A stretch of 64,000 nt of DNA from Alphaproteobacteria bacterium (GTDB lineage: Bacteria > Pseudomonadota > Alphaproteobacteria > Rhizobiales > Aestuariivirgaceae), in the NCBI GenBank assembly GCA_024279095.1, contig JAJRRY010000157.1, positions 2,040 to 66,039 on the forward strand, read 5' to 3'. Below, one piece after another: positions 29,399 through 58,102 of this stretch (its first letter is position 1; each line of letters opens with the position of its first letter). Made by a program: the position numbers and the translations under genes. The notes beneath the pieces are model-generated. The model worked only from the letters and a program-made list of their open reading frames with translations, was not told where the DNA came from and did no database searches.

Positions 29399-30430
29399 TC
29401 AAGCCTGCTTTCGCCCGAGCCTCTCCGCCAGAATTTCCGACGAGGTGCTGTGGACGAACGCATGATGCTCGTGCGGATGCACGTAGCGCACCGCTTTCTG
29501 CGCCATGAGAGCCGCCTCGTGAAATCCGGAAAGAATGAGCTTCAGCTTGCCCGGATAGACGCAGACATCCCCGATGGCAAAGACGCCCGGCCGGCTCGTC
29601 TCGAAGGCTTCCGTATCGACGCGAATACGCCCGCCCTCCATGTCCAGCCCCCATTCCGCGATTGCCCCCAGCTTTCCGGACAGTCCGAAGAAAAGCAGCA
29701 GGACATCCGCCGGCAGTTCGAAGGTTTCGCCATCGTGGGCCGCATGCACCGCATGCAGCATCCCGTTCTCGCCCGACAGCCCGCGGATCTGTCCCAACCG
29801 GAAGTCCAGCTCTCCAGCTTCGGCCATTTCCTTCATCCGGCGCACGCTCTCCGGTGCCGCACGAAACTCCGGCCGTCGATGCAGGAGAGTCAGCCGCTCC
29901 GCCAGAGGCGCCAGCTCGATGGCCCAGTCAAGAGCGGAATCCCCACCGCCGGCAACCACGATACGCCGGCCGCGCAAAGCCTCGACATCCTTCACGGAAT
30001 AAAAGACGGAATGCCCCTCGTAGGCATCCAACCCCTTCAGAGGCGGCCTTTTCGGCTCGATGGAACCACCGCCGGCGGCAATCACCACCACACGTGCCAG
30101 GAACGTGAGCCCCGAGGCCATACGGACGCGGTATCCCCCATCGTCCAGCTGCTCCAGTTCCCTAGCCGCTTCCTCGAAATGGAAGACCGGTTCGAAAGGC
30201 GCCGACTGTTCCAGCAGGCGTTCAGCCAGTTCGCGACCGGTAATGCGCGGATGCGCGGGAATGTCGTAGATGGGCTTCTGGGGATAGAGTTCCACGCATT
30301 GCCCGCCGGCATGGGGGAGCACGTCCACCAGATGGGCCTGCACGCCCGTCATGCCCAGCTGGAAAGCGGCGAACAACCCTGCCGGCCCTGCTCCGATGAT
30401 GAGGGCTTCCGTCTCGACCTGACGCGTCAT
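29399..30430 (-). CDS. thioredoxin-reductase-type ferredoxin-NADP(+) reductase
   Basis: ALIIGAGPAGLFAAFQLGMTG...GGQCVELYPQKPIYDIPAHP and a second GGGDSALDWA dinucleotide motif are typical of YumC-type FNR. Confidence 0.8.
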   Translation of the reverse strand: MTRQVETEALIIGAGPAGLFAAFQLGMTGVQAHLVDVLPHAGGQCVELYPQKPIYDIPAHPRITGRELAERLLEQSAPFEPVFHFEEAARELEQLDDGGYRVRMASGLTFLARVVVIAAGGGSIEPKRPPLKGLDAYEGHSVFYSVKDVEALRGRRIVVAGGGDSALDWAIELAPLAERLTLLHRRPEFRAAPESVRRMKEMAEAGELDFRLGQIRGLSGENGMLHAVHAAHDGETFELPADVLLLFFGLSGKLGAIAEWGLDMEGGRIRVDTEAFETSRPGVFAIGDVCVYPGKLKLILSGFHEAALMAQKAVRYVHPHEHHAFVHSTSSEILAERLGRKQA

Positions 30431-30431
30431 C

Positions 30432-30761
30432 TCACCCCTGCTGCTCGGGAACGCGCACCGTCATGCCGTCCATCTCCGGAACGATCTTCACCTGACAGGA
30501 GAGGCGCGAATTCTCACGGACGTCAAAGGCGAAGTCCAGCATGTCTTCCTCCGTTTCCGAACGGGAAGACAGCCCCGGGATCTTCTCCAGCCAGACGGGA
30601 TCGATGTAGACATGGCAGGTGGCGCAGGCACATGCGCCACCGCAATCGGCATCGATACCCGGCACCATGTTCCTGATGGCCGCCTCCATGAGGGTCATGC
30701 CCTCCTCCGCCTCGACCTCGTGGCTCTTGCCCTCCGGATCGATGAAAACGATCTTCACCAT
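30432..30761 (-). CDS. 2Fe-2S ferredoxin (adrenodoxin/putidaredoxin type)
   Basis: 109 aa. CGGACACATCHV ... C pattern. One nt upstream of the reductase gene start. Confidence 0.85.
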   Translation of the reverse strand: MVKIVFIDPEGKSHEVEAEEGMTLMEAAIRNMVPGIDADCGGACACATCHVYIDPVWLEKIPGLSSRSETEEDMLDFAFDVRENSRLSCQVKIVPEMDGMTVRVPEQQG

Positions 30762-30870: not shown

Positions 30871-31260
30871 TCAACCCGCCCGGCGCAGATCACCGGAATG
30901 TGCCTGCCGCCAGTGTGCCCAGGCCTTCCGGAAATCCCCCGCCTGTCGTCTGAGACGTTCCATCAGCGGATCCGGAACGGACGGCCCTTCCTTCTCCAAA
31001 GCAAGCGCCGTTTCGGCAAGGGAGAAGGCGCCTACGGCCCGCGCGGCCCCCTTGAGCGTATGCGCCGCCAGCTTCCATTTGCGGACGTCCCCGCGAGCGG
31101 CTTCCAGGGCGGCCAGAAGCTCTTCCAGCTGGGTATCGAACATGCTCAGAAGCTCACGCTCGAGTTTCACGTCGCCCATCGTGTAGCGCGCCAGATGGGC
31201 TGTATCGATGACATCGGACAGAGCCGGCGCGTGCGTGCTGTCGTTTCCGGTCAAGGTCAT
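30871..31260 (-). CDS. stand-alone Hpt (histidine phosphotransfer) domain protein
   Basis: Internal ATG at 31260 (MTLTGND...). Phosphorylatable His context AAHTLKGAARAVGA. 129 aa. The long track ORF upstream of this ATG looks non-coding. Confidence 0.7.
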   Translation of the reverse strand: MTLTGNDSTHAPALSDVIDTAHLARYTMGDVKLERELLSMFDTQLEELLAALEAARGDVRKWKLAAHTLKGAARAVGAFSLAETALALEKEGPSVPDPLMERLRRQAGDFRKAWAHWRQAHSGDLRRAG

Positions 31261-31679
31261 GGCGGCCCTCCCGTTTCTGACGTTTCCCCCGGAACTATCC
31301 CCAGCCTGTCCGCCTTTTCGTAAAATTGGGTTTACGCCTGCGGGGTTTCCGGCAAGAATAGTTGACGGATGGTGAATTGTGACGACAAGTTGACTCAAAA
31401 CGGGCCACGAAATTAACCAAACTTTGAAATAAACGCCGTCGACATTCCGGCAAAGGTTAATAATGAGCCGGATTGCGGGGACTGCCCCTGCCATCAAGCG
31501 GGATTTTTGCGAAAGGCGGTCTCTCCGCATTCCGGGTGAGCCGCCTCCGCCAGCAAATGGCGGTGCCGCATGCCTGCGGGCCATGCATTCACATTCGTGG
31601 GTGCATCGCAATATCAAGGGACATGGGGCGGTTCTGACGAACCAGTCAGCAAAGGGCATAAAAGCAGGGCAACGGAAAC

Positions 31680-34600
31680 ATGGCGAAACCGACAGCAGAC
31701 AAGGCCGCCAAGACGGAAAGGCAGCAGGCTCGCGAGACCGCATCCGCGAAAGCCCGGCAGCAGAAGCCGGCGCGGAGGAAGGGGCTGCGCGTGCGCCCCG
31801 CCAATCAGAACGACGCCATGGCGGCCGCGCTCATAGCCCGCATGCGCCGCCGCCCGTCCACGGCGCCATTCTGGTTCGCCTTCGTCATCTCCCTGTTCTG
31901 GGTGTTTGCCATTGCGGCCATCTACGGTCCGACCATTGCCGCCATGAGCAATCCCGTGGCACCCCGCAACCTGCCCACGACGGCCACGGCGCTGATCGCG
32001 CTGTTCCTGCCCATCTTTCTGGTCTGGTCCACCGCCTATCTGCTGTGGCGCGCCCAGCACATGCGCCAGGTCTCCGAGGCCTTGGTGCACACGGCCTTGC
32101 GCCTCGTGCAGCCCGACCAGATCGTCAGCGACGGCCTGACCACCGTGGCCCGGCGCGTGCGCGGCGAGATCGACCATCTGGTGGGCGGCATGGAGCAGGC
32201 CATCAAGCGCGCCGGAGAGCTGGAAGCCGTCGTCCACAAGGAAATGGCCTCGCTGGAGCGCGCCTTCGGTGCCAACGAAGAGCGAATCCGCACCCTGCTG
32301 GCCGGCCTGGAGCATCAGCGCAACGCACTGGCTGAAATCGGAAAGAGCCTCAATGCGGATGCCGCCCCGGTCATTCAGCAGCTGGAAGAACGCATCACTC
32401 AGCTCAATGGCCTTGTCGGTTCCGCCACCGGCACGCTCTCCACCCTCGAACAGGAGCTCAAGGGCACGGCCACGCAGTTCACCACGGCACTGGAGGAAGT
32501 TTCCGGCCGTACCTCCCTGACCGTCAACGAGATCGGAGGGCAGGTGGCCCGGCTGGAGCAGATGTCCGGCATGCTGCTCGGCGAGACCAGGAGCTTCACC
32601 GAGAAACTGGGTGAGCAGTTCCAGATCCTGGGCAGCGCCACCGCCACCCTGAAGGACGAGTCCACCCGCTTCGGCACGCAGGTGAAGGAGATGGAGAAAT
32701 CTGTCGTCGAGACCCTGCGCACCTCCGCAGACGAACTGTCCCGGACCAATGCCGACGTGGCCCGCAATGTGGAGGCCATGACCTCCACGCTCTCCGAGCA
32801 GTTGCGCGAGACTTCGCAGCAGGCCACGGAGCTGCTGCGCACGTCCGGCGAAAACATCACCTATCATCTGAAGTCGGTAGCCTCCGACCTCTCCGATCGT
32901 ATCGTCAATGCCGGCGGCGAGGTATCCTCCAAGATCGAGGAGGCGGCTACCATGATGAGCGACCGGCTGCTGTCCATGTCCGGCGAGTTCGTTCACAATG
33001 TCGCCGCGGCCCGTGACGAACTGCACACCTATCTCCAGAAGGCCACCGACGACATGGCCTCCCGCCTGGAGGAAACCACTTCGCAACTCTTTGCCCGCGC
33101 CGAAGAGGTCACCGGCCACATGAACGCCCGCCTGGAGGAAACCACGGAGCGTCTGTTCGGCCGTGTCGACGAGGCCACGGGCCGCATGTCCGGCAAGGTG
33201 GAGGAGACGGCCACGCTGCTCTTCGGCCGCGTCGCCGAAGCTACGGGCCAGATCGGCCAGTATCTGGACGAGTCCACCGCCATCATCGACAAGCGCATTG
33301 CCGAAACATCCGAAAAGGCCGAGGCGCGGCTGCGCAATGCCACCGGCACGCTGGCGAAGAATCTGGAAGCCATCGCCACCGAAATGACCGATAAGGCGGA
33401 ATCCGCCGCCACGCGCATCGCCAGCAACGCCAGCGAGACCACCGAGCGCATGACCCGCCTCATGGACGAGACGGCAGATCGCCTTTCCGGCCACTTCGAG
33501 AAGCGGGCCACGGTATTGTTCTCCCAGGCCGCGGAAGCCTCTTCGCAGATTGCCGGCTTCTTCGACGAGAGCACGGAAAAGCTGGAGAACCGAATCCTCG
33601 GCACTTCCATGAAGGTGGTGAAGAAGCTGGGCGATGCCACCGAAGGGCTGGAGAGCCTGCTTACCGAGAACGCCGATGCCATGGCTGCGAAGCTCGAGGA
33701 GTCCGCCGCCACCTACTTCACGCGAGTGACCGAGGCCACGGCCCAGATGACCCAGCATCTGGAAACCTCCACCGAAGGCATTACCCAGCGCATCGAGAAT
33801 GTGGCCGACGGCATGGCTGGTCGCCTGGAGAAGGCGACAGGCCGCATGTCCGAACTGCTCGATGTCGCATCGGCGGATCTCACCAACCGCCTGGAGGACA
33901 CCACCGAGAAACTCGCCACCCGTCTGGAGAGCACCTCCCTGGAGCTCACCGGCCGCCTGGACAATGTTTCGGCCACAGTCACCGAACGGCTGGATGAAAC
34001 CTCCCGCACCCTGCTCGGCAGGCTCGAACATGTCTCCTCCGACGTCACCGGCCGTCTGGCGGAGACCGCGGAGAACCTCACGACCCGTCTCGATACCATC
34101 TCCGTGGAAGTCACCGGCAAACTCTCGGAAACGTCCGAGACGCTGGCAGAACGTCTCGAACGTTCGACACTGGAGCTGACCGGACGCCTGCGCAATGCCA
34201 ACGAGGCCATGGCCGAACGTCTCGAGGCCACCTCCTCCGACCTGGCCAAGCGCCTGGACTCCACGGCCAGCGACATTGCCGAGCAGCTGGATACCACTTC
34301 CAGCCAGCTCACCAGCCGTCTGGTGGAGACTTCGGACGCCGTCTCCCGCCGCCTGGAGAGTGCCACCACGGAGGTTTCCTCCCGGCTGGAACAGACCACA
34401 ACGAACCTGCATGCCGAGCTGGAAACCATCTCCGGGCAGATGTTCGCCCGCCTGGAGCAGACCTCCGGCGAGCTCGTCGGCAAGCTGGATCTCACGGCCA
34501 ACGCCCTGCGCGAACACCTGGACGAAACCACCTCGACCATGTTCGAACGCATCGAGGCATCGGCCCGCGAGCTGGGTGGCCGCTTCGACGCCGCCAACGC

Positions 34601-36293
34601 CTTGCTCACGGAGATCTCCACGGACCTTACCGAACAGCTCAACCAGACCGGCAAGTCCTTTGTGGAGACGCTCGACGGAGCCACGGGTCGTATACTGGAA
34701 GACCTCGGAAAGGCCACCGAAGCCTTTGACGAGGGCCTGAAGACCACCGCCCGCGGCATCTTGGGCAATCTCAAGGACACCTCTCAGTCCTTCGCCCGCG
34801 AACTCGGCGAGAGCACGCAGGGTATCGCCGCACAGTTCGAGGAAACCGCTGGTCGCATCGTCTCCCGGATCGATGAAGCCACGCGCGAACTGGAGCAGAA
34901 GACTGCCGTCACCGCACGCCGTCTCGACGAAAGCTCTCTGCGCTTCTCCGGCCACATGCAGCAGGCCTCCGAAGCCCTTGCCCAGCAGCTCGAGGAAACC
35001 TTCGGCACCATGGACGAAAAGCTGGAAGGCACTTCGCTCCGGCTCACCGGACGGTTGGAGAACGTGTCGGAGCGCATCTCCGAAAGGCTGCAGGAAGTTT
35101 CCGGCATCGTCGAGCGCGCCACCGACCGCTTCGACGAGCGGATCACCGAGGTGCTCACCCGCCGCGAGGATCTTTTCGGCGATCTGATCGAGCAGCTTTC
35201 CGGCCGCGTATCGGAGGTTGACACCCTCATGAAGGCCTACATGACCCGCATCACCTCCTCGCTCGACGGCGCGCAGGAGAAGGCCGAGGAGATCGGCCGT
35301 CTCATCACTGCCCAGACAAGCGCGGCCGCGGAAACGCTGGCACAGGAGATCACCAGACTGGAACAGATCTCCGACACCCAGATCGCCCGCGCCGCCCGCA
35401 CCATCCGCGAACAGCACGAACGCCTGGTGGCATCCATCAACGAGATGCTCGGCGCTTCCACCGAGGAATTCACCGAGACGGCCGAGCATCTGCGCCGCAC
35501 CGCCCAGCAGGTGATCCGCGAGATCGAGGCCGTTCGCGCCGAGTTGCGTGAAGCAATCGTGGAGCTGCCCGAGGAGACTCGTGTCAATGCCGACAACATG
35601 CGTCGCGTCGTGGCAGATCAGATTACTGCACTGAATGCCTTGGCCGACGTGGTGAAGCGGCAGGCCGCTTCGCTCGAGCTGACCGGATCCGGGGTGCAGC
35701 CCCCGGAGCAGGAAAAGCCTGCTTCCGCCCTGAGTTTCACATCCGGCATGCGCGAAAAACCAAAGCACAAGGAGCATGCAGCCTCGGACAAGGTGCATGG
35801 ACGTTCCATCAGTGCCCTGCTCCGCCGCAAGACGGAGCCGGAAGGAGAAACCTCCGGCCTTGCCGGTTCCCTCCGCAAGGTGGCGGCCACCGTTACCGGC
35901 AACGGACGTACGGGCAAACCCTCTGCCGTCCGCAAGACGGAAGAGCTGGTCAAGGCCCTGAACTCCGCCAGCCGTGACCTTGTCCTGGCGCTGGAGAAAA
36001 CCCTGCCTCAGGATCTCGAAACCCGGTGGAAGAAGGGCGAAAGGTCCGTCTACACGCATCACCTTTACCTGAAGCGCGGCAAGCATCTCGACGAGGCGAT
36101 CGCCACCCGTTACGGCACGGACGAAGCGGTGCGCGAGCGTGTGGATACCTTCATCCAGTTGTTCGAGAAGCTGCTGGACACGGTGTCCGAATCCCCGCGC
36201 GGTGACGAGCTGGTCGACTCATGTCTGGCCTCCGAATCAGGCAAGCTCTATCTGGTGCTGGCCCAGGCCACTGGCAGGATCGGCAACGCCTGA
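31680..36293 (+). CDS. giant membrane-anchored coiled-coil protein with apolipoprotein-like 11-residue repeats (GPR/RgsE-like)
   Basis: 1537 aa. Basic N-terminus, then two TM helices (TAPFWFAFVISLFWVFAIAAIYG and TATALIALFLPIFLVWSTAYLLW). About 68 hendecad repeats follow, then a non-repetitive C-terminal domain. Strong terminator downstream. Confidence 0.8.
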   Translation: MAKPTADKAAKTERQQARETASAKARQQKPARRKGLRVRPANQNDAMAAALIARMRRRPSTAPFWFAFVISLFWVFAIAAIYGPTIAAMSNPVAPRNLPTTATALIALFLPIFLVWSTAYLLWRAQHMRQVSEALVHTALRLVQPDQIVSDGLTTVARRVRGEIDHLVGGMEQAIKRAGELEAVVHKEMASLERAFGANEERIRTLLAGLEHQRNALAEIGKSLNADAAPVIQQLEERITQLNGLVGSATGTLSTLEQELKGTATQFTTALEEVSGRTSLTVNEIGGQVARLEQMSGMLLGETRSFTEKLGEQFQILGSATATLKDESTRFGTQVKEMEKSVVETLRTSADELSRTNADVARNVEAMTSTLSEQLRETSQQATELLRTSGENITYHLKSVASDLSDRIVNAGGEVSSKIEEAATMMSDRLLSMSGEFVHNVAAARDELHTYLQKATDDMASRLEETTSQLFARAEEVTGHMNARLEETTERLFGRVDEATGRMSGKVEETATLLFGRVAEATGQIGQYLDESTAIIDKRIAETSEKAEARLRNATGTLAKNLEAIATEMTDKAESAATRIASNASETTERMTRLMDETADRLSGHFEKRATVLFSQAAEASSQIAGFFDESTEKLENRILGTSMKVVKKLGDATEGLESLLTENADAMAAKLEESAATYFTRVTEATAQMTQHLETSTEGITQRIENVADGMAGRLEKATGRMSELLDVASADLTNRLEDTTEKLATRLESTSLELTGRLDNVSATVTERLDETSRTLLGRLEHVSSDVTGRLAETAENLTTRLDTISVEVTGKLSETSETLAERLERSTLELTGRLRNANEAMAERLEATSSDLAKRLDSTASDIAEQLDTTSSQLTSRLVETSDAVSRRLESATTEVSSRLEQTTTNLHAELETISGQMFARLEQTSGELVGKLDLTANALREHLDETTSTMFERIEASARELGGRFDAANALLTEISTDLTEQLNQTGKSFVETLDGATGRILEDLGKATEAFDEGLKTTARGILGNLKDTSQSFARELGESTQGIAAQFEETAGRIVSRIDEATRELEQKTAVTARRLDESSLRFSGHMQQASEALAQQLEETFGTMDEKLEGTSLRLTGRLENVSERISERLQEVSGIVERATDRFDERITEVLTRREDLFGDLIEQLSGRVSEVDTLMKAYMTRITSSLDGAQEKAEEIGRLITAQTSAAAETLAQEITRLEQISDTQIARAARTIREQHERLVASINEMLGASTEEFTETAEHLRRTAQQVIREIEAVRAELREAIVELPEETRVNADNMRRVVADQITALNALADVVKRQAASLELTGSGVQPPEQEKPASALSFTSGMREKPKHKEHAASDKVHGRSISALLRRKTEPEGETSGLAGSLRKVAATVTGNGRTGKPSAVRKTEELVKALNSASRDLVLALEKTLPQDLETRWKKGERSVYTHHLYLKRGKHLDEAIATRYGTDEAVRERVDTFIQLFEKLLDTVSESPRGDELVDSCLASESGKLYLVLAQATGRIGNA
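32658..34901 (+). repeat. 33-nt (11-codon) periodic coding repeat array inside the giant gene
   Basis: Counted by hand. From aa 327 to 1074 every 11th residue is hydrophobic (L/M/V/I/F) in one unbroken register. The most regular block is aa 734-953 (nt 33879-34538): LTNRLEDTTEK LATRLESTSLE LTGRLDNVSAT VTERLDETSRT and so on. Confidence 0.85.
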
Positions 36294-36545: not shown

Positions 36546-37067
36546 ATGAATCTACAGCTCTCTCCCGGTATCTCCGCCGCGACCGTCGAAACCCTTGCCA
36601 GCCGGGCCCTCTACGCCCCGCAGGCCTATTTCCTCGTCTCTGGAACCGGAGACGCAGAACGCCGGCTCGTCGCTTTCGATCTGGCGCTGATGCGTGCCGG
36701 CATCGCCGACGTCAATCTCATACGCCTGTCCTCCATCGTCGGGCCGAAGGCCGAGCGCATCGAGCCCGTGAAGCTTGCCCCCGGTGTGCTCGTGCCTACC
36801 GCCTATGCGCAGATCTGCTGCGATCAGGCCGGAGAACGCGTGGCGGCAGCCGTCGCAGTAGCCCATCCGGATGACCCGGAACGCGCCGGTGTCATCATGG
36901 AATATTCCGCACACTGCTCTGCCGGAGAAGCCGAACGAATCGTTCGTGGCATGGCGGAAGAAGCCATCGCCAACCGCGGCCTCGGGGTGGATCGCATCGA
37001 AAGCATTTCCGCCGAGCACGTCGTTGCAAAAAACGGTTGCGCATTCGCCGGCGTCGTACAGCTCTGA
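36546..37067 (+). CDS. pdaD: pyruvoyl-dependent arginine decarboxylase
   Basis: 173 aa. RLVAFDLALMRAGIADVNLIRLSSIVGP contains the family self-cleavage Ser-Ser context. Confidence 0.7.
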   Translation: MNLQLSPGISAATVETLASRALYAPQAYFLVSGTGDAERRLVAFDLALMRAGIADVNLIRLSSIVGPKAERIEPVKLAPGVLVPTAYAQICCDQAGERVAAAVAVAHPDDPERAGVIMEYSAHCSAGEAERIVRGMAEEAIANRGLGVDRIESISAEHVVAKNGCAFAGVVQL

Positions 37068-37217
37068 TCCGACGGAAGAAACCCGCCGAGACCTGTCGTT
37101 GCGGAGCCCGTGACTCCTGGAGTTGCGGGCTCCTGCCGTTGTGACGCGGCTTGCCTTGCCCCTCCCCAGCCGCATACGATGGTCACGCCCTTTGACCGCC
37201 CCCCTGAAGAGAGGCAC

Positions 37218-38207
37218 ATGCTGGAAATCACCGTTGAGGAACGCGCCTGGCCGCTCCTGCGCCCGTTCACCATTTCGCGTGGCACACGCGACGTGGCACG
37301 TACCGTCATTGTGACGCTGAGCGACGGGAAAGGACGAACGGGCACCGGCGAGGCGGTGCCCTACCCCCGCTACGGCGAGGCCGTGGAAGACACTGTCGCG
37401 GAACTGGAAGCTGCCGCGCCCTCCATTGCCAGCGGCATTTCCCATGACGACATTCCCCGCCTGCTGTCCGGCAAGGCGGCCCGCAATGCACTTGATTGCG
37501 CCCTCTGGGATCTCGAGGCGGCACAGACGGAAAAGCCCGTCTGGAAGCTGGCGGGCCTGCCCCGTCCAGCGCCACTGGTCACCGCCTATACCATCAGCCT
37601 TGGCAGCCCCGAGGACATGGCGGATCAGGCACGGCACAACGCCGGGCGCCCTCTCCTGAAACTGAAATTGGGAGCCGATGCCGCCGGCGACATCATGCGC
37701 CTGCGCGCGGTACGCATGGCTGCGCCACACAGCCGCATCATCGTCGACGCCAACGAGGGATGGCAGCCAGACAGCCTTCCAACGCTATTCGCCGTCTGTG
37801 CAGATTGCGGTGTGGAGCTGATCGAGCAGCCGCTGCCGGCAGACGCAGACGAGGCCCTCTCGCGCATCATCCGCCCGGTACCTGTCTGTGCGGACGAATC
37901 CGTCCATGACATCGAGGACCTTCCCGCGCTCCGATCACGTTACGATGCTGTCAACATAAAGCTCGACAAGACCGGCGGTCTGACGCCCGCCCTGCGCCTT
38001 GCCTCCACGGCCCGGGAACAGGATTTCGAGATCATGGTCGGATGCATGCTGGCCTCCTCCCTTGCCATGGCTCCGGCCTTTCTGGTAGCCCAGCTGGCAC
38101 GCTGGACCGACCTTGACGGCCCCCTGCTGCTGGCCGAGGATTTCGCCCCCTCGATGCAGCATGAAAATTCCGTCATCCAGCCGCCGGAGCCTGCTCTCTG
38201 GGGCTGA
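37218..38207 (+). CDS. dipeptide epimerase (enolase superfamily, L-Ala-D/L-Glu epimerase-like)
   Basis: Internal ATG at 37218 (MLEITVEERAWPLLRPFTISRG). KLKLG, DANEGW, IEQPL and the CADES motif series of the MLE subgroup. Confidence 0.75.
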   Translation: MLEITVEERAWPLLRPFTISRGTRDVARTVIVTLSDGKGRTGTGEAVPYPRYGEAVEDTVAELEAAAPSIASGISHDDIPRLLSGKAARNALDCALWDLEAAQTEKPVWKLAGLPRPAPLVTAYTISLGSPEDMADQARHNAGRPLLKLKLGADAAGDIMRLRAVRMAAPHSRIIVDANEGWQPDSLPTLFAVCADCGVELIEQPLPADADEALSRIIRPVPVCADESVHDIEDLPALRSRYDAVNIKLDKTGGLTPALRLASTAREQDFEIMVGCMLASSLAMAPAFLVAQLARWTDLDGPLLLAEDFAPSMQHENSVIQPPEPALWG

Positions 38208-39459: not shown

Positions 39460-40290
39460 ATGAACAAGACTCCCTCCCCAAACGTCAACGAGGATTTCGA
39501 AGCCATCGAGGCCGCCGTTCTGGAAACCGCCCGCGGTCGCTGGTTCCTGGCCGAATATCTGCGGCGCCATCAGGCGGCGGAAACACGTGCGCTGCTGGAT
39601 GCCATCCGGAAGCTGGAGAACGCCCTGGGGGCGGATGGTCAGCGTTCTCGCGACATTCTCGCCATCATGGAACGGACAGCCGGCCAGCTGGCCGAGATCG
39701 GGCACGAGCCCTTCGCCTCCGCCCTGCCGGAAGCCGTTCTGCAGATGGCAGAGGAAGCCGCCGCCATAGCCACCCGCATGGAGAAGCTGGGAGAAAAGGA
39801 CGGAGATCCCGAAAGCACACTGCCTGCCCAGCTTTCCGCGCAGCAGCACCTCATGGCCCGCAAGCTGGAAGCCGTCGCCGGCTGTCTGAGAGAAATCTCC
39901 ACCATCTGCGGTGCGGAAACCCCGCAGCAGACCGAGGAGCCCAGCATCAGGCCCGAACAGGCCCGTTGGTTCGCTTCCGATGCCGAACTCTTCGAAGAGG
40001 AAACCCGTGCCGTCGAATCCGGAGCTGCTTCCGGTGCGGAACTGCCGGAAGATGATACCGGCGCAAACGAGCGCACGGGACATCTCTCCATCATCATCGA
40101 ACCGGGTCAGCCGAAGAAGGTGCACAGGGAAACCCGCATCACGGACGTCGAGGAAGCGGACCGCCCCCGTATCATCATCACCCGCAAACGTTCTTCCAAC
40201 GAGGTCGACATCCCCATGGCCGGCCACGAAGAGGAAGACGGAACAACAGAAACGACAGCCATCCGGAAGCCCGAGAAAAGCGAAGCCTGA
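39460..40290 (+). CDS. acidic hypothetical protein
   Basis: Only the part of track ORF 38284-40290 after the ATG at 39460 does not overlap the MFS gene on the opposite strand. MNKTPSPNVNEDFEAIEAAVLETARGRWFLAEYLRR..., with a Glu/Asp-rich C-terminal half. Family not recognised. Confidence 0.5.
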   Translation: MNKTPSPNVNEDFEAIEAAVLETARGRWFLAEYLRRHQAAETRALLDAIRKLENALGADGQRSRDILAIMERTAGQLAEIGHEPFASALPEAVLQMAEEAAAIATRMEKLGEKDGDPESTLPAQLSAQQHLMARKLEAVAGCLREISTICGAETPQQTEEPSIRPEQARWFASDAELFEEETRAVESGAASGAELPEDDTGANERTGHLSIIIEPGQPKKVHRETRITDVEEADRPRIIITRKRSSNEVDIPMAGHEEEDGTTETTAIRKPEKSEA

Positions 40291-46522: not shown

Positions 46523-48238
46523 ATGTCCGATTTGCTCAAGACCATCGGTTCCATGGTGGTGGCTGCGGGCCTCACGCTGGTGTCCGCCAGCATGCCGGCC
46601 ACTGCGGCGGAAAAGGAAAAGGCGGAAGACGGAAGCCGGATCGAGTTTGGCATCAATGAATATTCCGATCTGCCCGCACGTCCGCACATGGTGAGCGCTT
46701 TCACGCTCAAGGAGCTCTCGACCACCGCCGACCACTCGAAGTTCAAGGAGCTGCAGGGGCCATTCAAGTCTGGTCCGGAGGTCACGAAGGCCTGTCTGTC
46801 CTGCCACAACAAGGCCGGACAGCAGTTGCGGAACAACGTTCACTGGACATGGGAATACACCCATCCGGTCACCGGCCAGAAGCTGGGCAAGGAACGCCTG
46901 ATCAACAACTTCTGCACCAACGCCCGCGGCAACGAGGGCATGTGCGCCCAGTGTCACGCCGGTTTCGGTCGCACATCGCCCGACTATGACCTGGACAAGG
47001 TGGAGAACATCGACTGCCTCGCCTGCCACGAATCCACAGGCAAGTACTACAAGCTGCCGCCGACCCGCGGCAACAAGGCCTGCGCCGTCATGTTCGAGGG
47101 CAAGAAGCCCATCGACTGGGCAAAGACCGCACAGAGCGTCAAGATGCCGGGCCGCAACAACTGCGGCATGTGTCACTTCTACGGCGGCGGCGGCGACAAC
47201 GTGAAACATGGCGACCTGTCTTCCGTCCTCTACGACCCGCCGAAGGACGTGGACGTGCACATGAGCCGGGATGGTGCCAAGCTGGTCTGCATCGATTGCC
47301 ATGTCGGCTCGGGCCACAAGTGGGCCGGTTCCCGCTACAACATGACCGTCGGCGATTCCGGAAAACGCCCCGCCGGCGCGCCGCGCACAAAGGCCACCTG
47401 CACCAGCTGTCATACCGACAGCCCGCACAACAGCACCTCCATCACCGGCATCAAGCTCAATGGTCATGTGGACAAGGTGGCCTGCGAAAGCTGCCACATC
47501 CCGGCATTCGCCCGGGGCGGCGTGGCCACCAAGATCTTCTGGGACTGGCGCACGGCCGGCCGTCTCAAGAACGGCGAGGGCTATCGCGAAGAGGGATACA
47601 TTCAGGGCAACGGGAAACCCCGCCACACCTACAAGTCCATCAAGGGCTCCTTCAAGTATGGCGAGAACATCCGCCCTGTCTATCGCTGGTTCAACGGGGT
47701 CATGCGCTATACCACCATCGACACCCGCTTCGACCCCTCCAAGCCGGTACAGATCAACTACTTTTCCGGCTCCTATGACGACCCGAAGTCGCGCATCTAC
47801 CCATTCAAGAAGATGCGGACCTTCCAGCCCTACGACAAGGGGAACAACACCCTCGTCTACATGCATCTGTGGGGCGACGACAAGGATGCCTTCTGGGGCA
47901 ACTACAATTTCGCCCGGGCCATCGCGCGGGGCATGAAGGACAACGGCATTCCCTACTCCGGCGAATACGGCTTTGTCGAAACCTGGTCCTGGTGGCCCAT
48001 CAACCACATGGTGGCACCGAAGGAAAAGGCCGTGCAGTGCGAGGAGTGCCACACCCGCGAGAACGGCCGGCTGGCGGATCTCGGCGGCTTCTACATGCCC
48101 GGCCGCGACAGGTGGTGGTGGCTGGACCTCCTGGGATGGCTGGCCATCTTCGGCGCCCTCGCGCTAGTCGTCGTCCACACCATCGCCCGCATCGTCATGA
48201 AGAACCGGTACGGCGCCGCGCCCGAAGGGAAGGAGTGA
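46523..48238 (+). CDS. octaheme c-type cytochrome, tetrathionate reductase (Otr) family, with C-terminal membrane anchor
   Basis: Signal peptide. Eight CxxCH motifs counted: CLSCH, CAQCH, CLACH, CGMCH, CIDCH, CTSCH, CESCH, CEECH. C-terminal helix WLDLLGWLAIFGALALVVVHTIARIV. Confidence 0.85.
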   Translation: MSDLLKTIGSMVVAAGLTLVSASMPATAAEKEKAEDGSRIEFGINEYSDLPARPHMVSAFTLKELSTTADHSKFKELQGPFKSGPEVTKACLSCHNKAGQQLRNNVHWTWEYTHPVTGQKLGKERLINNFCTNARGNEGMCAQCHAGFGRTSPDYDLDKVENIDCLACHESTGKYYKLPPTRGNKACAVMFEGKKPIDWAKTAQSVKMPGRNNCGMCHFYGGGGDNVKHGDLSSVLYDPPKDVDVHMSRDGAKLVCIDCHVGSGHKWAGSRYNMTVGDSGKRPAGAPRTKATCTSCHTDSPHNSTSITGIKLNGHVDKVACESCHIPAFARGGVATKIFWDWRTAGRLKNGEGYREEGYIQGNGKPRHTYKSIKGSFKYGENIRPVYRWFNGVMRYTTIDTRFDPSKPVQINYFSGSYDDPKSRIYPFKKMRTFQPYDKGNNTLVYMHLWGDDKDAFWGNYNFARAIARGMKDNGIPYSGEYGFVETWSWWPINHMVAPKEKAVQCEECHTRENGRLADLGGFYMPGRDRWWWLDLLGWLAIFGALALVVVHTIARIVMKNRYGAAPEGKE

Positions 48239-48242
48239 TCCC

Positions 48243-48995
48243 ATGCCCCTCAGGAAAAGGAAAGACGACGGAAAGCTCTGCGCCCACGTGGTGATCTACA
48301 CCCGTTACGAGCGCTTCTGGCACTGGACGCAGGCGGCCCTGATCTTTACGCTCGCCTTCACCGGTCTGAACATCCACGGCGTCTATCATGTCATGTCCAT
48401 GGAGACGGCCGTTGTCACCCATGACATTGCCGCCACGCTGCTCATTCTGCTGTGGATCTTCACCACGTTCTGGAACTTCACCACCGGCAACTGGAAGCAG
48501 TTCCTCCCCTTCCTGCAGGTCCATCCGGAGGACGGCCGTTTCGTCACCGGACTGAAAATCTTCATAAACCGCCTGTGGGCCGTGGTACGCTACTACGCAT
48601 GGGGCATCCTGAAGGGCGAGCCGCACCCCCACAAGAAAACCCTGCAACGCAAGCAGAATCCCCTGCAGGCACTGGCCTATCTGACCTTCATGATCGTCAT
48701 CGGTCCGGCCCTGTGGATCTCGGGCATATTCTACATCCTCTACGACCTGTGGAACGACTTCGCCGGATCGCAGATGTGGTTCCAGGCCACCGTCTTCGTC
48801 CACACGGCAGCCGCCTTCGCCATGATCGCCTTCGTGATCATTCATGTCTACATGACCACCACCGGAAAGACCCCCCTGCACTACATCAAGGGCATGATCA
48901 CCGGCGTGGAGGAAGTGGAACTCTCCGAGATCGAAAAGGAATACCTCGAAACTCATGCTCCGGATCTCCTGAAGGACGAGAACGCAAGCTGCTGA
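48243..48995 (+). CDS. membrane b-type cytochrome (FdnI / Ni-Fe hydrogenase cytochrome b family)
   Basis: Starts 5 nt after the Otr stop. YERFWHWTQAALIFTLAFTGLNIHG, with 4-5 TM helices bearing conserved His. Confidence 0.75.
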   Translation: MPLRKRKDDGKLCAHVVIYTRYERFWHWTQAALIFTLAFTGLNIHGVYHVMSMETAVVTHDIAATLLILLWIFTTFWNFTTGNWKQFLPFLQVHPEDGRFVTGLKIFINRLWAVVRYYAWGILKGEPHPHKKTLQRKQNPLQALAYLTFMIVIGPALWISGIFYILYDLWNDFAGSQMWFQATVFVHTAAAFAMIAFVIIHVYMTTTGKTPLHYIKGMITGVEEVELSEIEKEYLETHAPDLLKDENASC

Positions 48996-49075
48996 GCCCC
49001 CTCGCCCCTTGAAACCGGCACCGGGCGCCCCCTTATCAGGTAGAGGAACACGCACGGGAAGGGCCGGCAAACCTG

Positions 49076-49663
49076 ATGAACGAAGGTATCCGGAAGAATG
49101 CGACGGAACAGGAGGGAATGGCGCGGAGCACCCTGCGCGACTGGTGGCAGGCGCGTCACCGCATCGCCATGGAAGCCCTCTTCCTGAGCGTCGTCGTGAT
49201 GACCGTCATCGGTATCGCCCTGACCAACATCGCACCGGCAGCCAGCTACCGCTACTGGCTCTTCACGGTCGGCCTGTTCGCCATCGCCGGTGTCCTGACG
49301 GGCAATCTCCGCGCCTGGGAGGAACATCGCTCCCTGTTCCACGTCACGCTGGAACAGACGGTCCACTGGACGGTGACCCTGCTGGCGGTCCTCATCGTGC
49401 ATCTGATGCTGCTCAGCGGCCGCCTGACCTTCGAGGCTACGGGACTGATCCTCATGCTCCTGCTCGGACAGGCGGTGGCTTTGGACGGTTTCTACCGCAC
49501 CGGCTGGCGCTTCGCCGTGCTCGGCCTGACCATCATGGCCATGGCCCTGTTTGCGGCCTGGTTTGCCGCCTACGTCTGGATGATTGTCGCTGGCGGCCTG
49601 CTGCTGTGGCTGATCGCCATGCTTCTCGACATCTATCTGCCGCACCCGGCGGAGAGGCGTTGA
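49076..49663 (+). CDS. integral membrane protein, unknown function
   Basis: 195 aa with 5-6 hydrophobic helices. Ends 12 nt from the nosY stop (convergent). Confidence 0.5.
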   Translation: MNEGIRKNATEQEGMARSTLRDWWQARHRIAMEALFLSVVVMTVIGIALTNIAPAASYRYWLFTVGLFAIAGVLTGNLRAWEEHRSLFHVTLEQTVHWTVTLLAVLIVHLMLLSGRLTFEATGLILMLLLGQAVALDGFYRTGWRFAVLGLTIMAMALFAAWFAAYVWMIVAGGLLLWLIAMLLDIYLPHPAERR

Positions 49664-49675
49664 ATGCGCGTCCCC

Positions 49676-50506
49676 TCAGGGCAGATCCGTGCGGCGAAAG
49701 ATCAGGAAGCCGATACCCGCCAGCAGGAAACCCAGCAGCAGCGGATAGAGCAGCGCATAGGCCATGAAGCCGGCATTGCCAAAGAAATCGAGGATGATGT
49801 AGGCCGCCGGCCCCAGAAGGATGAGCTGCGGATCGAAAAGCATCATGGCCCCGATGCGGAAGACTTCCAGCGGATTGGAGAGTGCCAGCCCGACGACCAC
49901 CTCCGCCGGCGTCTGGAACTGGATCAGCAGACCGATCAGGATCAGGTCCAGGAACATCAGCATCACCAGCCACAGGAAGAAGGCCACCGACTGCGCCACG
50001 TCGGAGGTACGCGACATGGCCGAGATCAGGAAGGAGATGCCGAGAAAGCAGAAGGCCAGCGATACCAGCAACGCCGAATACCAGGCGAAGTCCCGCCACG
50101 GGATCTCCTCCGCTCCCATGAACAGGCCAACCACGAGGGAGATTCCCATCGCCGCGAACACCGGAATGAACACCACGATGAACCGCCCGATGAAGCGGCC
50201 CCAGTACCAGCTGGAGAGCGAGACCGGAAACGAAAGCATGTACTCGTAGACGCCCGCCTCGCGGTCACCGGCCAGCGAGCGGACCGTGGACAGCAGCACG
50301 AAGATCGGCAGAATGGCCATGGTCAGCTGAATGAAAGTCACCAGCATGCGTGACAAGCCGGTGAACCCCATGACGCGGGACTCCGTCAGGCCGAACACGA
50401 AAAGCGTGGCGATCAGCCCCCCGAAGACCAGCGCATAGAGCGCAAACCACTTCGAGCGGATGGACTCGGAAATGTCGAGCCGCGCCGTCTGCCAGAACGA
50501 ATACAT
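49676..50506 (-). CDS. nosY: ABC-2 type permease NosY
   Basis: 6 TM helices and an AGDREAGVYEYMLSFPV block. Position in the nos cluster. Confidence 0.8.
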   Translation of the reverse strand: MYSFWQTARLDISESIRSKWFALYALVFGGLIATLFVFGLTESRVMGFTGLSRMLVTFIQLTMAILPIFVLLSTVRSLAGDREAGVYEYMLSFPVSLSSWYWGRFIGRFIVVFIPVFAAMGISLVVGLFMGAEEIPWRDFAWYSALLVSLAFCFLGISFLISAMSRTSDVAQSVAFFLWLVMLMFLDLILIGLLIQFQTPAEVVVGLALSNPLEVFRIGAMMLFDPQLILLGPAAYIILDFFGNAGFMAYALLYPLLLGFLLAGIGFLIFRRTDLP

Positions 50507-50515
50507 CCTGATACC

Positions 50516-51019
50516 TCACCTCTGTGCCGCCGGATCGTCCGGACCAAGCAGATCGTGATTCTCGCACCGCGAACTCAGGCCGCGCGCGATCACCTGCTTC
50601 TTCATCTCCTCGTAATCCACTGCGCCTTCGCGTTTCTCCGTGATGGCACCGAAACCGTAGTCCATCGGCGTGGTCTGGCCGGGCAGATACCAGGCCTTGC
50701 GGGCATCCAGCCACTTGCGACCGGTCTTCATGTCCGCCACCCAGATCTCCTTTGCCCGACGGCCGTCCTTGTACCATTTCTGGCGGATCATCCAGTGAAT
50801 GGCATCGCCGATGTCATCGAACTTGTGGATTTTTCCGTCCGGATCACGAATTTCAGCCGCAAAGCGTGGATCGGAAATGATCATGTTGCAGATTTCGCAG
50901 GTCTCCCGGTCGTAGCGGATTTTCTCCGGCCCCGTCTTCTCCTTGCACGCGGAGAGACCGCCCGCCGCGATGACGCAGCAGGACAGCACGATCAGCCGCC
51001 TGCGGGAAAGCTCAGGCAT
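50516..51019 (-). CDS. nosL: copper-chaperone lipoprotein NosL
   Basis: Lipobox GLSAC. CEICNMIISDPRFAAEI ... KFDDIGDAIHW is typical of NosL. Confidence 0.8.
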   Translation of the reverse strand: MPELSRRRLIVLSCCVIAAGGLSACKEKTGPEKIRYDRETCEICNMIISDPRFAAEIRDPDGKIHKFDDIGDAIHWMIRQKWYKDGRRAKEIWVADMKTGRKWLDARKAWYLPGQTTPMDYGFGAITEKREGAVDYEEMKKQVIARGLSSRCENHDLLGPDDPAAQR

Positions 51020-51881
51020 CCGCCTTCTCCCTGCTCAGGTCATGCATGTTCAGATCGGCGATGACGCCGACATAGCGCGCCAGCATGCCGAGGAAACGCA
51101 ACCGGTCCGGACCGGCCACGATACCCGTCCAAGTGATACCTCCATCCGCGCTCTCGAAGCCCCATTCGCCGATGGCTCGCGCAAAGGCCTCTTCCGGCTT
51201 GCGCAAAACGATGCGCACCTCCTGCCGAAGTCCGGGATCGATGGCGTCCTCGACACGGTCATCCAGCACCACCTTGCCGCGATCCATCTCGATCACCCGG
51301 TTGACCAGCATGGCCACTTCCTCAAGTCGGTGTGAGGAGATGATCATCGACTTGTCCAGCCGCTCGGCCAGCAGGTCGAAAAGGATCTGCCGGGCCGCAG
51401 GATCCAGATTGGCCGTCGGCTCATCCATGATGAGCACATCGGCGTCCCGTCCCATGGCAATGGCGATCAGCAGCTTCTGTTTCTGGCCGCCGGACAGCTT
51501 CATGAAAGGACGCTTGCGCACCTCGCCGATGTCCAGACCCATGCGCTCGGCAATACTGCCGATGCGTTCTTCCGTGGTGTGGCAGAGCCGCGAGGCGAAA
51601 TTCACCAGCTCGCCAACGGGCATGCGCAGCGGCGGCGGCATCTGGGGGACGAAGGCGATCTTCTGCAATACGCTGGTACGCGCCGAACGGGGCGAGACGC
51701 CATCCACCAGCACTTCGCCATCATAGACGTATTCGCCCAGAATGCAGCGGATCATGGTGGTTTTTCCGGCACCATTCGATCCAATCAGCGCAATCCGGTC
51801 TCCGGCGTCGATTCTCAGGGACAGTCCGTCGAGCACGCGCGTGCGCCGGAACGTCTTGGATACGTTTTTCAGTTCGATCAT
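51012..51881 (-). CDS. nosF: ABC transporter ATP-binding protein NosF
   Basis: Internal ATG at 51881 (MIELKNVSKTF). Walker A GSNGAGKTT, LSGGQKQK, Walker B VLIMDEP. Confidence 0.85.
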   Translation of the reverse strand: MIELKNVSKTFRRTRVLDGLSLRIDAGDRIALIGSNGAGKTTMIRCILGEYVYDGEVLVDGVSPRSARTSVLQKIAFVPQMPPPLRMPVGELVNFASRLCHTTEERIGSIAERMGLDIGEVRKRPFMKLSGGQKQKLLIAIAMGRDADVLIMDEPTANLDPAARQILFDLLAERLDKSMIISSHRLEEVAMLVNRVIEMDRGKVVLDDRVEDAIDPGLRQEVRIVLRKPEEAFARAIGEWGFESADGGITWTGIVAGPDRLRFLGMLARYVGVIADLNMHDLSREKADA

Positions 51882-52078
51882 CTGCCGCCTTCCGTTCCCC
51901 ATGAGGCCGGGGCACGATGTCCCGGCATGAGCCGCGGGAAGTCTCGTTGCGAACCGCTTCCCTGCGGCATGCATCGTCGGGCCCGGCCATGCCGTTTCCG
52001 GAGCCCTCGGCAGCAAGCCACGCTCACGTCGGCATGTCCTTGACCATGCTCAAGCGTTCAGCCCCCTGAAGAGCAGCC

Positions 52079-53056: not shown

Positions 53057-53059
53057 GGC

Positions 53060-53848: not shown

Positions 53849-53988
53849 GATCGCACCCGTTCCATGCCGTGGTCAGCCATTTCCAACACCCTCCGCAATC
53901 GGCCACCGTTCTCCCCCTCGCCGTCGCGGTCCGCCGACCTCGCATTTCCCAATCGTCCATTCCGCCTCCTCATTCCGTGAAGGACGGA

Positions 53989-55416: not shown

Positions 55417-55648
55417 GCCGAAATCCCGTCTGTCCTGAAACATGACCGCGACAATGTTTGGCCCCGAAAATCCCATGTTCGCACAATGGCTTGTCCGGGC
55501 ATATGCGGAACCAGCACCATTATCCGGTATAGTCCCGGCAAGGCTGCCGAAAATTGATCAAAGTCATGCTTGAGCCTGTTCCCCCGGAGGGCTTTCCGCG
55601 ATGCGGGAGCACGGGACACCCCGTGCTCCCGAAACATTGCGTAAGCCT

Positions 55649-56944: not shown

Positions 56945-57161
56945 TGTTCAACCCTCAGATAAGCGTCCGGTCGGGCCCCCGTCTCCGAAATGGAATATCC
57001 GCTCATCCGGCGTCTCCGCCAGTAACACGGACACAAAACCTTCCGTGGCAGGATGACTTATCTACCCTGCGGGTGGGAGCGAGCAGCCGCACGGTGCGGC
57101 CGTCCGGTCGCCTTCCGGCCGTCTTCCGGATCTCCCGGAAACGACCCTTTCCGTTGCGGAT

Positions 57162-57188
57162 CCGCCCGCTCCAGTCCGGAGCGGGCGG
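57162..57188 (-). other. intercistronic stem-loop (nos operon)
   Basis: CCGCCCGCTCC-N5-GGAGCGGGCGG, an 11-bp perfect stem in the 268-nt gap between the second cytochrome c gene and nosB. No U tract. Confidence 0.5.
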
Positions 57189-57212
57189 AAGTTGTCGGTC
57201 AGAGGGACGGGA

Positions 57213-57986: not shown

Positions 57987-58102
57987 GTTTCTCTCCACTC
58001 GTGGGGTTGATCCTTTCCGCCGTTCACGATGCCGCCGGATCCTGTCCCTGTCATGCTCGCCTGCAGGAGGCCGACGGACCGAAAACCACGGATAACGCTA
58101 GT

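Follow-up and report, generated by a model that had tools for sequence, protein, structure and literature searches.

Does a 1537-aa membrane-anchored protein with tens of consecutive 11-residue repeats represent a new kind of protein, and what could such a repeat do in the cell? The question is raised by a gene at positions 31680–36293 (plus strand) of a 64-kb stretch of DNA from an uncultured Hyphomicrobiales bacterium. We refer to this whole stretch as the window. The first-pass annotation had named the Agrobacterium growth-pole-ring protein GPR (Atu1348) and Sinorhizobium RgsE as the closest analogues, as giant proteins with N-terminal transmembrane (TM) segments and apolipoprotein-like repeats.

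Localisation of this family to the new pole has been shown in A. tumefaciens, S. meliloti and B. abortus (PMC8262873, PMC7327166, PMC9938171). Six foci arranged in a ring, and cells that turn round or branched upon depletion or overproduction, are likewise known from these three species only. RgsE of Sinorhizobium meliloti (SMc00190) has 2089 aa, is 42% identical to GPR and shares its predicted topology, with up to ten apolipoprotein domains (PMC7327166). RgsE interacts with RgsA, RgsS and TolQ (PMC7327166; PMC9938171).

Layout of the window protein

The open reading frame starts with ATG and consists of 1537 codons and a stop codon. Homologues begin similarly (MAKNSS...), which supports the annotated start. 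An antisense ORF of 1490 aa (31614–36086, minus strand) was discarded as a shadow ORF, since it translates into a low-complexity sequence rich in G, A and L and fails the codon-position GC filter, while the plus frame passes with a GC3 of 0.82.

The protein begins with a basic cytoplasmic tail (aa 1–61, 31680–31862; 17 K+R against 4 D+E), followed by a TM hairpin at 31863–32051 with TM1 at approximately aa 62–88, a short loop and TM2 at approximately aa 98–124 (hydropathy windows >1.6). Residue counts and hydropathy thus bear out the basic N-terminus and the two TM helices that had been read from the sequence at first pass. After the hairpin come about 1200 residues of proline-free helix, then a disordered linker and a compact C-terminal domain; not a single proline occurs between aa 231 and 1296 (1066 aa). 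The helical part starts with a conserved juxtamembrane module (aa 125–326, 32052–32657) with a hydrophobicity period of about 3.6 (z=13.9, Fourier analysis) and an advancing phase. It continues with the hendecad core (aa 327–1074, 32658–34901) and a distal region of drifting phase (aa 1075–1329, 34902–35666). The distal region contains the conserved motif ELPEETRxNAxxMRxVVADQIxALNAL, with invariant columns in two homologue alignments. The linker (aa 1330–1414, 35667–35921) is of low complexity, rich in S, G, A, E, K and P, and predicted to be disordered by AlphaFold2 (AF2; pLDDT <50). The C-terminal domain (aa 1415–1537, 35922–36290) is helical, family-specific and predicted with a pLDDT >90. 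It was matched by 1099 cluster representatives, and among the matches listed it lies at or near the protein C-terminus.

The AF2 models agree with a mainly helical protein, with a difference in confidence along the chain. Residues 1181–1329 are predicted as one single helix with a pLDDT >90. The hendecad core is likewise all-helical by DSSP, at a low pLDDT of 55.6. Both AF2 models are thus helical, but confidence in the core was low. With the C-terminal model as query, Foldseek found no PDB structure at E<=1e-3; the long helix included in the model may mask weak domain matches. An Rfam scan of the 64-kb window gave no match either.

A single hendecad register spans 68 repeats

The core was written out in rows of 11 residues over aa 327–1074, which gave 68 rows in a single register. 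Position 1 is occupied by L, I, V, M, F, W or Y in 94% of the rows, and 81% have a hydrophobic residue at position 5. K, R or H is found at position 4 in 62% and D or E at position 6 in 54%. The most regular block comprises 20 hendecads (aa 734–953, 33879–34538). Here, position 1 is always hydrophobic, position 5 is L in all 20 rows, position 4 is R or K in 17 and position 6 is E or D in 16, with S or T at position 8 in 70% and at position 9 in 80%. These counts agree with the consensus [LVM]xx[RK]L[ED]x[TS][ST]x[ED] that had been drawn by eye for this block.

Fourier analysis of the hydrophobicity of aa 327–1074 resulted in a sharp peak at a period of 11/3 (z=153 against shuffled sequences). 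Only 3.667 and its relative 5.5 exceeded z=3 in the spectrum, and thus the core has no heptad peak at 3.5. The proposal of 68 in-register hendecads, and of a hendecad rather than a heptad repeat, was therefore confirmed by row phasing as well as by periodicity. When the 11/3 phase was tracked along the protein, it remained within some 20 degrees between aa 339 and aa 955. It was shifted by about +35 degrees over aa 977–1060 and by about 100 degrees at aa 1131. A slip of one residue, as initially suggested for the sequence after aa 1075, corresponds to 98 degrees. The size of the shift was thus correctly predicted, but it builds up as a gradual drift and not as a clean break. Tandem Repeats Finder detected no 33- or 66-nt DNA repeat in the gene. 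The lack of a tandem repeat at the DNA level indicates that the hendecads are old and diverged.

The core carries a net charge of −52 over 748 aa, and its hydrophobic stripe is narrow, covering about 2–3 of the 11 positions.

The window protein is a relative of Agrobacterium GPR

Looked up by its exact sequence, the window protein had no database record, and a word-indexed search with the whole protein returned only 12 matches at 22–40% identity. With a GPR sequence obtained by optical character recognition (OCR) of Fig. S3 in PMC8262873 as query, the same type of search missed both GPR and RgsE and gave only distant relatives, among them proteins of Liberibacter crescens and Bartonella. A second source for GPR was a metagenome contig (L083), which carries a clean copy of 2115 aa. 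Direct BLASTP comparison gave E-values of 7e-37 and 4e-33 with the OCR sequence, and of 1.7e-42 and 2.1e-42 with the clean copy.

The similarity includes the parts of the protein outside the repeat. The N-terminal TM/juxtamembrane module alone matched GPR with E=3e-23; the TM region aligns with GPR aa 102–161 and the juxtamembrane part is 27% identical to GPR aa 162–280. The C-terminal module alone matched the last ~120 aa of GPR with E=1e-27, and the alignment reaches both C-termini. The non-repeat modules are colinear in the two proteins. In addition, both contain ten PF01442 stretches, with 191 bits for the window protein (cut-off 90) and 172.9 bits for the clean GPR. In both, a continuous proline-free helix of more than 1000 aa is built of constant-phase hendecads (68–73 in the window protein and about 79 in GPR), and a disordered linker precedes the terminal compact domain, its GPR counterpart being a Pro-rich low-complexity sequence (PMC8262873). 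The predicted topology, with a basic N-terminus and two TM helices, is as in RgsE and GPR. S. meliloti RgsE (PMC7327166) and Brucella abortus RgsE (PMC9938171) belong to the same family by transitivity through GPR.

There are also differences. At 1537 aa, the window protein is about 580 aa shorter than GPR, and it lacks the long acidic N-terminal extension of about 90 aa that precedes the TM region in GPR. Identity is about 22% overall and 27–30% in the end modules. Nevertheless, the BLASTP match at E~2e-42 together with the matches of both end modules substantiates the proposed likeness to GPR, and the alignments identify the window protein as a clear relative of Agrobacterium GPR. It is thus a new representative of a known family and not a new kind of protein. 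Krol et al. (2020, PMC7327166) described RgsE homologues from every Rhizobiales family, which makes the window gene an expected orthologue.

Rod length varies in steps of 11 residues

The first-pass annotation had considered an unbroken register of this length unusual. Within the family it is not: constant-phase runs comprise about 79 hendecads in GPR and 60–93 in other homologues. The hendecad register is therefore a trait of the GPR family and not special to the window gene. The length of the core between two conserved anchors ranges from 110 to 748 aa among homologues. In 37 of 55 homologues, the difference in core length from the query is a multiple of 11. Rod length thus appears to evolve in 11-residue quanta, by which the register would be preserved.

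A divergent Hpt gene and a CtrA-type box accompany the locus

A stand-alone Hpt protein of 129 aa with an HTLKGAA motif is encoded divergently upstream (30871–31260, minus strand). It matched PF01627 with 44 bits (cut-off 24.6), which verifies the divergent arrangement described at first pass, and it is 45% identical to the Hpt protein upstream of Agrobacterium-type GPR. The neighbours of the window gene are Hpt, ferredoxin, PvlArgDC and DgcA. Of 80 Hyphomicrobiales loci, about 60 have a divergent ferredoxin-Hpt pair upstream, and the pair is also present at Agrobacterium-type and other Rhizobiaceae GPR loci. The closest loci are from uncultured Hyphomicrobiales metagenome-assembled genomes, one of which (L001) displays full synteny at 82–85% nucleotide identity. 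It is from these nearest loci that the host is placed in Hyphomicrobiales. The synteny with Hpt is lost in Liberibacter crescens and Bartonella. Conservation throughout the order, including the Agrobacterium-type GPR locus, makes this link stronger than was apparent at first pass. However, unrelated neighbours (ferredoxin, reductase) are conserved to the same degree as Hpt, and hence synteny alone does not prove a functional link with Hpt. A literature search on the neighbours of the GPR/RgsE locus (Atu1347/1349, SMc00189/00191) found nothing relevant.

The intergenic region shared by the Hpt and GPR-family genes contains a CtrA-box-like motif, TTAACCAAACTTTGA (31413–31427, plus strand). Nowhere else in the 64-kb window is TTAA-N7-TTAA matched with one mismatch or none. 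Among 65 related loci, 46 have TTAACCA at the corresponding position, compared with 0.016 expected, and 64 of 65 Rhizobiaceae loci contain it as the reverse complement. The GPR locus thus shares with the window locus the divergent ferredoxin-Hpt pair as well as a CtrA-like TTAACCA in the intergenic region, but the motif is on the opposite strand. A GANTC site (GACTC, 31392–31396) is located 21 nt upstream of the TTAACCA motif. In related upstream regions, GANTC was found at −21 in 23 of 45 and at −26 in 22 of 45, at a background of 0.002 per nt; this placement of GANTC sites beside the TTAACCA motif is a feature of the window's clade. A scan for sigma-70 promoters and terminators found nothing, as did a literature search for regulation of GPR or SMc00190 by CtrA. 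Given the conserved CtrA-type box and the GANTC sites, expression of the window gene is probably cell-cycle controlled, as judged from motif resemblance and conservation only.

Discussion

GPR is known by its localisation, ring and phenotype, and the window protein by its sequence. Its homology makes it very probable that the gene encodes a GPR/RgsE-family protein acting as a membrane-attached scaffold for polar growth at the new pole of this Hyphomicrobiales bacterium. The protein would gather at the new, growing pole and self-assemble there, as its relatives do in A. tumefaciens, S. meliloti and B. abortus, and the membrane-attached scaffold would organise polar peptidoglycan and membrane synthesis. 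With an 11/3 repeat, positions 1, 5 and partly 8 would form a narrow hydrophobic stripe that runs straight down the helix. Even very long helices could then pack laterally or rest on a surface with no need to supercoil. The stripe would be bordered by Arg at position 4, and the other side of the helix would be covered with acidic residues. Given this strongly acidic face and the narrow stripe, helix-helix bundling or oligomerisation is favoured over direct binding to an anionic membrane.

A true family member could still have departed from polar growth and act as a different membrane-associated tether or cytoskeletal element, perhaps in budding, in the morphogenesis of stalks or hyphae, or in organising the envelope. 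The low identity to GPR and the large variation of the anchor-to-anchor core length (110 to 748 aa) are in line with such a change, and Krol et al. (PMC7327166) raised the possibility that RgsE homologues play a different role in lineages without the other Rgs proteins. Yet the end modules have been retained between the window's clade and Agrobacterium, as have the neighbouring genes and the motif upstream, which argues for a conserved role, and localisation to the new pole is conserved in three distant genera. We therefore regard a diverged role as unlikely. Some matches direct attention away from the family altogether. NCBIfam subfamilies of the anti-phage, motor-associated protein ZorA match the protein below threshold, and some homologues are named "kinesin-like protein" in databases, as would fit a ZorA-like coiled-coil tail or a generic SMC-type or kinesin-like heptad coiled coil. 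The chance that either description applies is negligible. The best ZorA score is 99 bits against a cut-off of 190, every such score is far under its cut-off and located in the repeat region, and the protein has no MotA-like domain and no zorB-like neighbour next to Hpt, ferredoxin, PvlArgDC and DgcA. The kinesin-like names are automatic annotations, and a canonical heptad coiled coil is rejected by the absence of a signal at 3.5.

The protein also resembles lipid-binding proteins. Human apolipoproteins A-IV and A-I (PF01442) are likewise made of amphipathic helical repeats of 11/22 residues, and ApoA-IV was the only match in a PDB sequence search of the window protein (E=6.9e-9); an ApoA-IV match in the PDB was reported for GPR too (PMC8262873). 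A coat of 11-mer helices lying flat on a lipid surface, in the manner of apolipoproteins, perilipins and alpha-synuclein, would agree with the PF01442 and ApoLp-III matches and with the reported presence of bacterial PF01442 proteins on lipid droplets. It would also agree with the 11/3 periodicity, in which Arg marks the border between the polar and non-polar faces and the polar face is acidic. The surface could be that of lipid droplets, of PHA granules or of the inner membrane. A coat of this kind is nevertheless highly improbable: the stripe of about 2–3 in 11 positions and the charge of −52 are unfavourable for anionic bacterial lipids, the protein has a TM hairpin anchor and non-repeat N- and C-terminal modules in common with GPR, and the proline punctuation typical of exchangeable apolipoproteins is missing. 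A-IV and A-I are secreted, proline-punctuated lipid carriers of 250–400 aa, whereas the window protein is membrane-anchored, cytoplasmic and 1537 aa long. A free, exchangeable apolipoprotein was thus rejected, given the TM anchor, this length and the 1066 aa without proline. Binding to a lipid surface could, on the other hand, describe a contact of the rod with the membrane within a GPR-type function.

The polar-growth scaffold that we prefer resembles, by description only, Scy and FilP of Streptomyces, which are likewise very long helical proteins of non-heptad periodicity tied to polar growth. These two proteins are soluble and actinobacterial, and their repeat differs from the hendecads of the window protein.

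We also considered a more specific proposal, in which the rod would act as a quantised ruler, changing in length only by steps of 11 residues (about 1.6 nm) that keep the stripe in phase, and its length would set the geometry of the growth-pole assembly. In addition, the family would be wired to the cell cycle throughout the order, by a shared CtrA/CcrM-type promoter region and by a dedicated stand-alone Hpt protein that connects a phosphorelay with polar growth. At present this combination is doubtful. Neither the ruler nor the cell-cycle/Hpt wiring was found in the literature searched, nor was RgsE mentioned there together with hendecads.

For the family, these observations redefine the "apolipoprotein-like" region as a single hendecad register over 60–90 repeats, kept while the length changed, in most cases by multiples of 11. 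Throughout the order, the GPR locus is accompanied by a conserved partner gene for a stand-alone Hpt protein, and its shared upstream region carries a CtrA-type box. GPR is an essential morphogenetic protein of plant and animal pathogens, and the value of the window gene is comparative. The register, the Hpt partner and the CtrA-type box would offer testable handles on the assembly of GPR and on the coupling of polar growth to the cell cycle.

Membrane anchor and hendecad core

The ORF at 31680–36293 (+), which begins with an ATG codon, encodes a protein of 1537 amino acids. Hydropathy analysis placed two membrane-spanning segments at approximately aa 62–88 and 98–124, preceded by a strongly basic N-terminal tail (aa 1–61; 17 K+R vs. 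4 D+E). The core (aa 327–1074) fills 68 rows when written with 11 residues per row. Large hydrophobic residues fill position 1 in 94% of the rows, and position 5 holds a hydrophobic residue in 81%; basic residues account for 62% at position 4 and acidic ones for 54% at position 6, and T, S or A predominate at positions 8 and 9. The 20 rows spanning aa 734–953 match the consensus proposed in the first-pass annotation near-perfectly. Fourier analysis of hydrophobicity over aa 327–1074 resulted in a sharp peak at a period of 11/3, with a power 153 standard deviations over shuffles, and in no peak at the heptad period of 3.5. The repeat is thus a hendecad, a heptad coiled coil is ruled out, and chance does not explain the pattern. 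No proline occurs between aa 231 and 1296, and no tandem repeat of this gene was found at the DNA level. The membrane-anchored hendecad architecture that had been read from the sequence by eye was therefore borne out throughout by ORF, hydropathy, row phasing and periodicity.

In a sliding-window track, the 11/3 phase stays flat to within ~20 degrees across aa 339–955, takes a step to ~+35 degrees in aa 977–1060 and has drifted to ~100 degrees at aa 1131. The one-residue slip described earlier after aa 1075 is thus real, but gradual rather than abrupt. A 1490-aa antisense ORF (31614–36086, −) was rejected as the shadow of a GC3-rich coding frame, because its translation is G/A/L-rich and it failed the codon-position GC test.

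Homology to GPR

The Pfam model PF01442 (Apolipoprotein A1/A4/E) matched the protein in 10 stretches with 191 bits (cut-off 90), ApoLp-III was a further Pfam match, and the only solved structures with a sequence match were those of ApoA-IV. Matches to PF01442 and ApoA-IV are properties published for GPR, the Agrobacterium growth-pole-ring protein (Atu1348, 2115 aa), and RgsE, its Sinorhizobium/Brucella counterpart. The GPR query was read by OCR from Fig. S3 of PMC8262873, which recovered 2099 of the 2115 residues. Full-length BLASTP against it gave E-values of 7e-37 and 4e-33. The N-terminal TM/juxtamembrane module matched by itself (E=3e-23, 27% identity), as did the C-terminal 278 aa (E=1e-27, 30% identity), in an alignment that reaches the C-terminus of both proteins. 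A clean GPR was then obtained from L083, a contig found in a metagenome scan with GPR residues 90–450, whose 2115-aa product is 97.8% identical to the OCR sequence, the mismatches being mostly OCR gaps; here the E-values were 1.7e-42 and 2.1e-42. GPR had no second match in the rest of the window. Since the end modules match GPR separately as well as within the full-length comparison, the protein is, as judged by sequence, a colinear member of the GPR/RgsE family with a repeat core shorter than that of GPR. A known family thus gains a further member: the initial observation is confirmed, and the proposed kinship with GPR and RgsE is supported.

The closest database proteins share just 34–40% identity with this GPR-like protein. 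In a scan of a genome collection that used the C-terminal alignment as query, the nearest relative was a locus in an uncultured MAG (L001), whose neighbourhood shares 88–96% amino-acid and 82–85% nucleotide identity with that of the window. It was followed by Hyphomicrobiales, Aestuariivirgaceae, Anderseniella, Parvibaculaceae and Rhodobiaceae MAGs and, farther away, by Xanthobacteraceae, Microvirga and Rhodoblastus. The 138-aa C-terminal domain matched 1099 cluster representatives and, among the matches listed, is found at the C-terminal end of the protein or close to it. AF2, with an input alignment of 70 sequences, predicted one long helix (aa 1181–1329, pLDDT >90), a disordered linker (aa 1330–1414) and a compact helical domain (aa 1415–1530, pLDDT >90). 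Foldseek found no PDB analogue of this model at E≤1e-3.

Repeat register across the family

The same 11/3 phase analysis was applied to homologues. The protein encoded in the window has 73 hendecads in constant phase, compared with 79 in clean GPR (11/3 z=64, heptad peak absent, proline-free stretch of 1255 aa), 66 in the Liberibacter crescens homologue, and 85 and 93 in two further homologues (P0012 and P0167). The unbroken register, initially regarded as unusual, is remarkable as protein architecture but not peculiar to this gene, because long constant-phase runs occur throughout the family.

As a measure of core length, we took the spacing of two distinctive conserved anchors, FVHNVAAARDELHTYL (aa 437) and MFERIEASARELGGRFDAANAL (aa 954), which between them enclose most of the core. 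The anchor-to-anchor distance among homologues ranges from 110 to 748 aa, and its offset from the window protein (for example −407, −264, −176, −121, +121 or +231 aa) is divisible by 11 for 37 of 55 homologues, against 9% expected by chance; this fraction is an upper estimate, since weak anchor matches in periodic sequence favour in-phase positions. Unambiguous cases are P0002–P0010, L001, L002, L004 and L022. As the offsets are mostly multiples of 11, rod length grows and shrinks in hendecad quanta.

Gene neighbourhood

Divergent from the GPR-like gene lies a gene for a stand-alone Hpt protein of 129 aa (30871–31260, −; PF01627 44 bits, HTLKGAA motif), as the first-pass annotation had stated. 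Beyond it are a 2Fe-2S ferredoxin (30432–30761, −) and a thioredoxin-reductase-like flavoprotein (29399–30430, −). On the other side, directly downstream, a gene of the DgcA-type N-acetyl-D-Glu racemase/L-Ala-D/L-Glu epimerase family (37110–38207, +; NCBIfam 447 bits, cut-off 400) shares synteny with the GPR-like gene in the majority of related loci; a tie to D-amino-acid or murein-peptide metabolism is possible. A pyruvoyl-dependent arginine decarboxylase (36546–37067, +) is inserted between the two genes in the window and L001 only. Further downstream are an MFS transporter, a DUF2852 protein and an ORF (39460–40290, +) with no Pfam or NCBIfam match, whose N-terminal ~50 aa are both conserved and syntenic in the majority of related loci.

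About 60 of 80 Hyphomicrobiales loci retain the order reductase–ferredoxin–Hpt, divergent from GPR-like gene and epimerase. Among the longer Agrobacterium-type and other Rhizobiaceae contigs, most likewise have ferredoxin and Hpt in divergent orientation upstream of GPR, with a reductase match in one only (L152). The Hpt of L083 (122 aa, PF01627 38.8 bits) is 45% identical to that of the window. The ferredoxin–Hpt arrangement was not found in Liberibacter crescens or a Bartonella species. A hybrid histidine kinase (PAS-HisKA-HATPase-REC; 522–3086, +), which would need an Hpt partner, is encoded 28 kb from the stand-alone Hpt.

Elsewhere, positions 46523–61269 contain genes for a multihaem cytochrome c and cytochrome b and, after these, a nos cluster. 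The cluster encodes NosD, ABC-type NosF/NosY-like components, a 4Fe-4S membrane protein and a NosZ-like protein of 768 aa that has nos propeller and cupredoxin domains, a set of genes that points to a capacity for reducing N2O. That recA and lexA are encoded here (7933–9045, + and 62692–63579, +) indicates that the window is chromosomal and not mobile-element DNA.

Intergenic motifs

In Alphaproteobacteria, CtrA recognizes TTAA-N7-TTAA and TTAACCAT, and CcrM recognizes GANTC. The 419-bp region between the Hpt and GPR-like genes (31261–31679) contains TTAACCAAACTTTGA (31413–31427), the only place in the 64-kb window that matches TTAA-N7-TTAA with no more than one mismatch. We surveyed this region (footprint 31392–31427) together with the upstream regions of L001–L080 and L083–L161. 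Of 65 related regions, 46 have TTAACCA at the corresponding position (0.016 expected), several of them as a full TTAA-N7-TTAA site, and in the clade of the window the motif is accompanied by GANTC at −21 and −26 relative to it. Upstream of Rhizobiaceae GPR, the reverse complement TGGTTAA is found in 64 of 65 regions (background 0.10), ~360 nt before the start codon. A CtrA-box-like TTAACCA(A/T) is kept across Hyphomicrobiales, on the opposite strand in Rhizobiaceae. Because the motifs resemble CtrA boxes and CcrM sites, we infer from these motifs that the divergent pair is probably under cell-cycle control; a literature search found no published report of such control.

Proposed role of the rod

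The helical angles of positions 1, 5 and 8 in an 11/3 helix are 0, +33 and −33 degrees; these positions form a straight narrow stripe, bordered by Arg of position 4 at −65 degrees; acidic residues occupy the far face. Large hydrophobics make up only ~24% of the core, whose 748 aa sum to a net charge of −52. The stripe probably mediates helix–helix packing, whether in bundles formed by one chain folding back on itself, like those of lipid-free ApoA-IV, or in bundles between subunits, and such packing would permit very long straight assemblies. A core lying flat on the anionic inner membrane is less likely. AF2 modelled aa 300–1100 as four long helices (DSSP), at a pLDDT of 55.6, so their arrangement is not trustworthy. 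Fully extended, the core would measure ~112 nm and the entire helical part ~180 nm, similar in order of magnitude to the ring formed by GPR (200 nm).

The reading as a free lipid coat of apolipoprotein type conflicts with the TM anchor, with end modules of the GPR kind, and with a core that is acidic and lacks prolines as punctuation. A ZorA-like protein was ruled out by scores and neighbours. That this family member has diverged in function is improbable. By homology to proteins studied in three genera, we propose instead that it would act as a membrane-anchored scaffold at the growing pole, organising peptidoglycan and membrane synthesis. Three results are modestly new and testable leads on the construction and regulation of GPR-type scaffolds: hendecad quantisation throughout the family, an Hpt partner shared across the order, and the conservation of a CtrA-type box.
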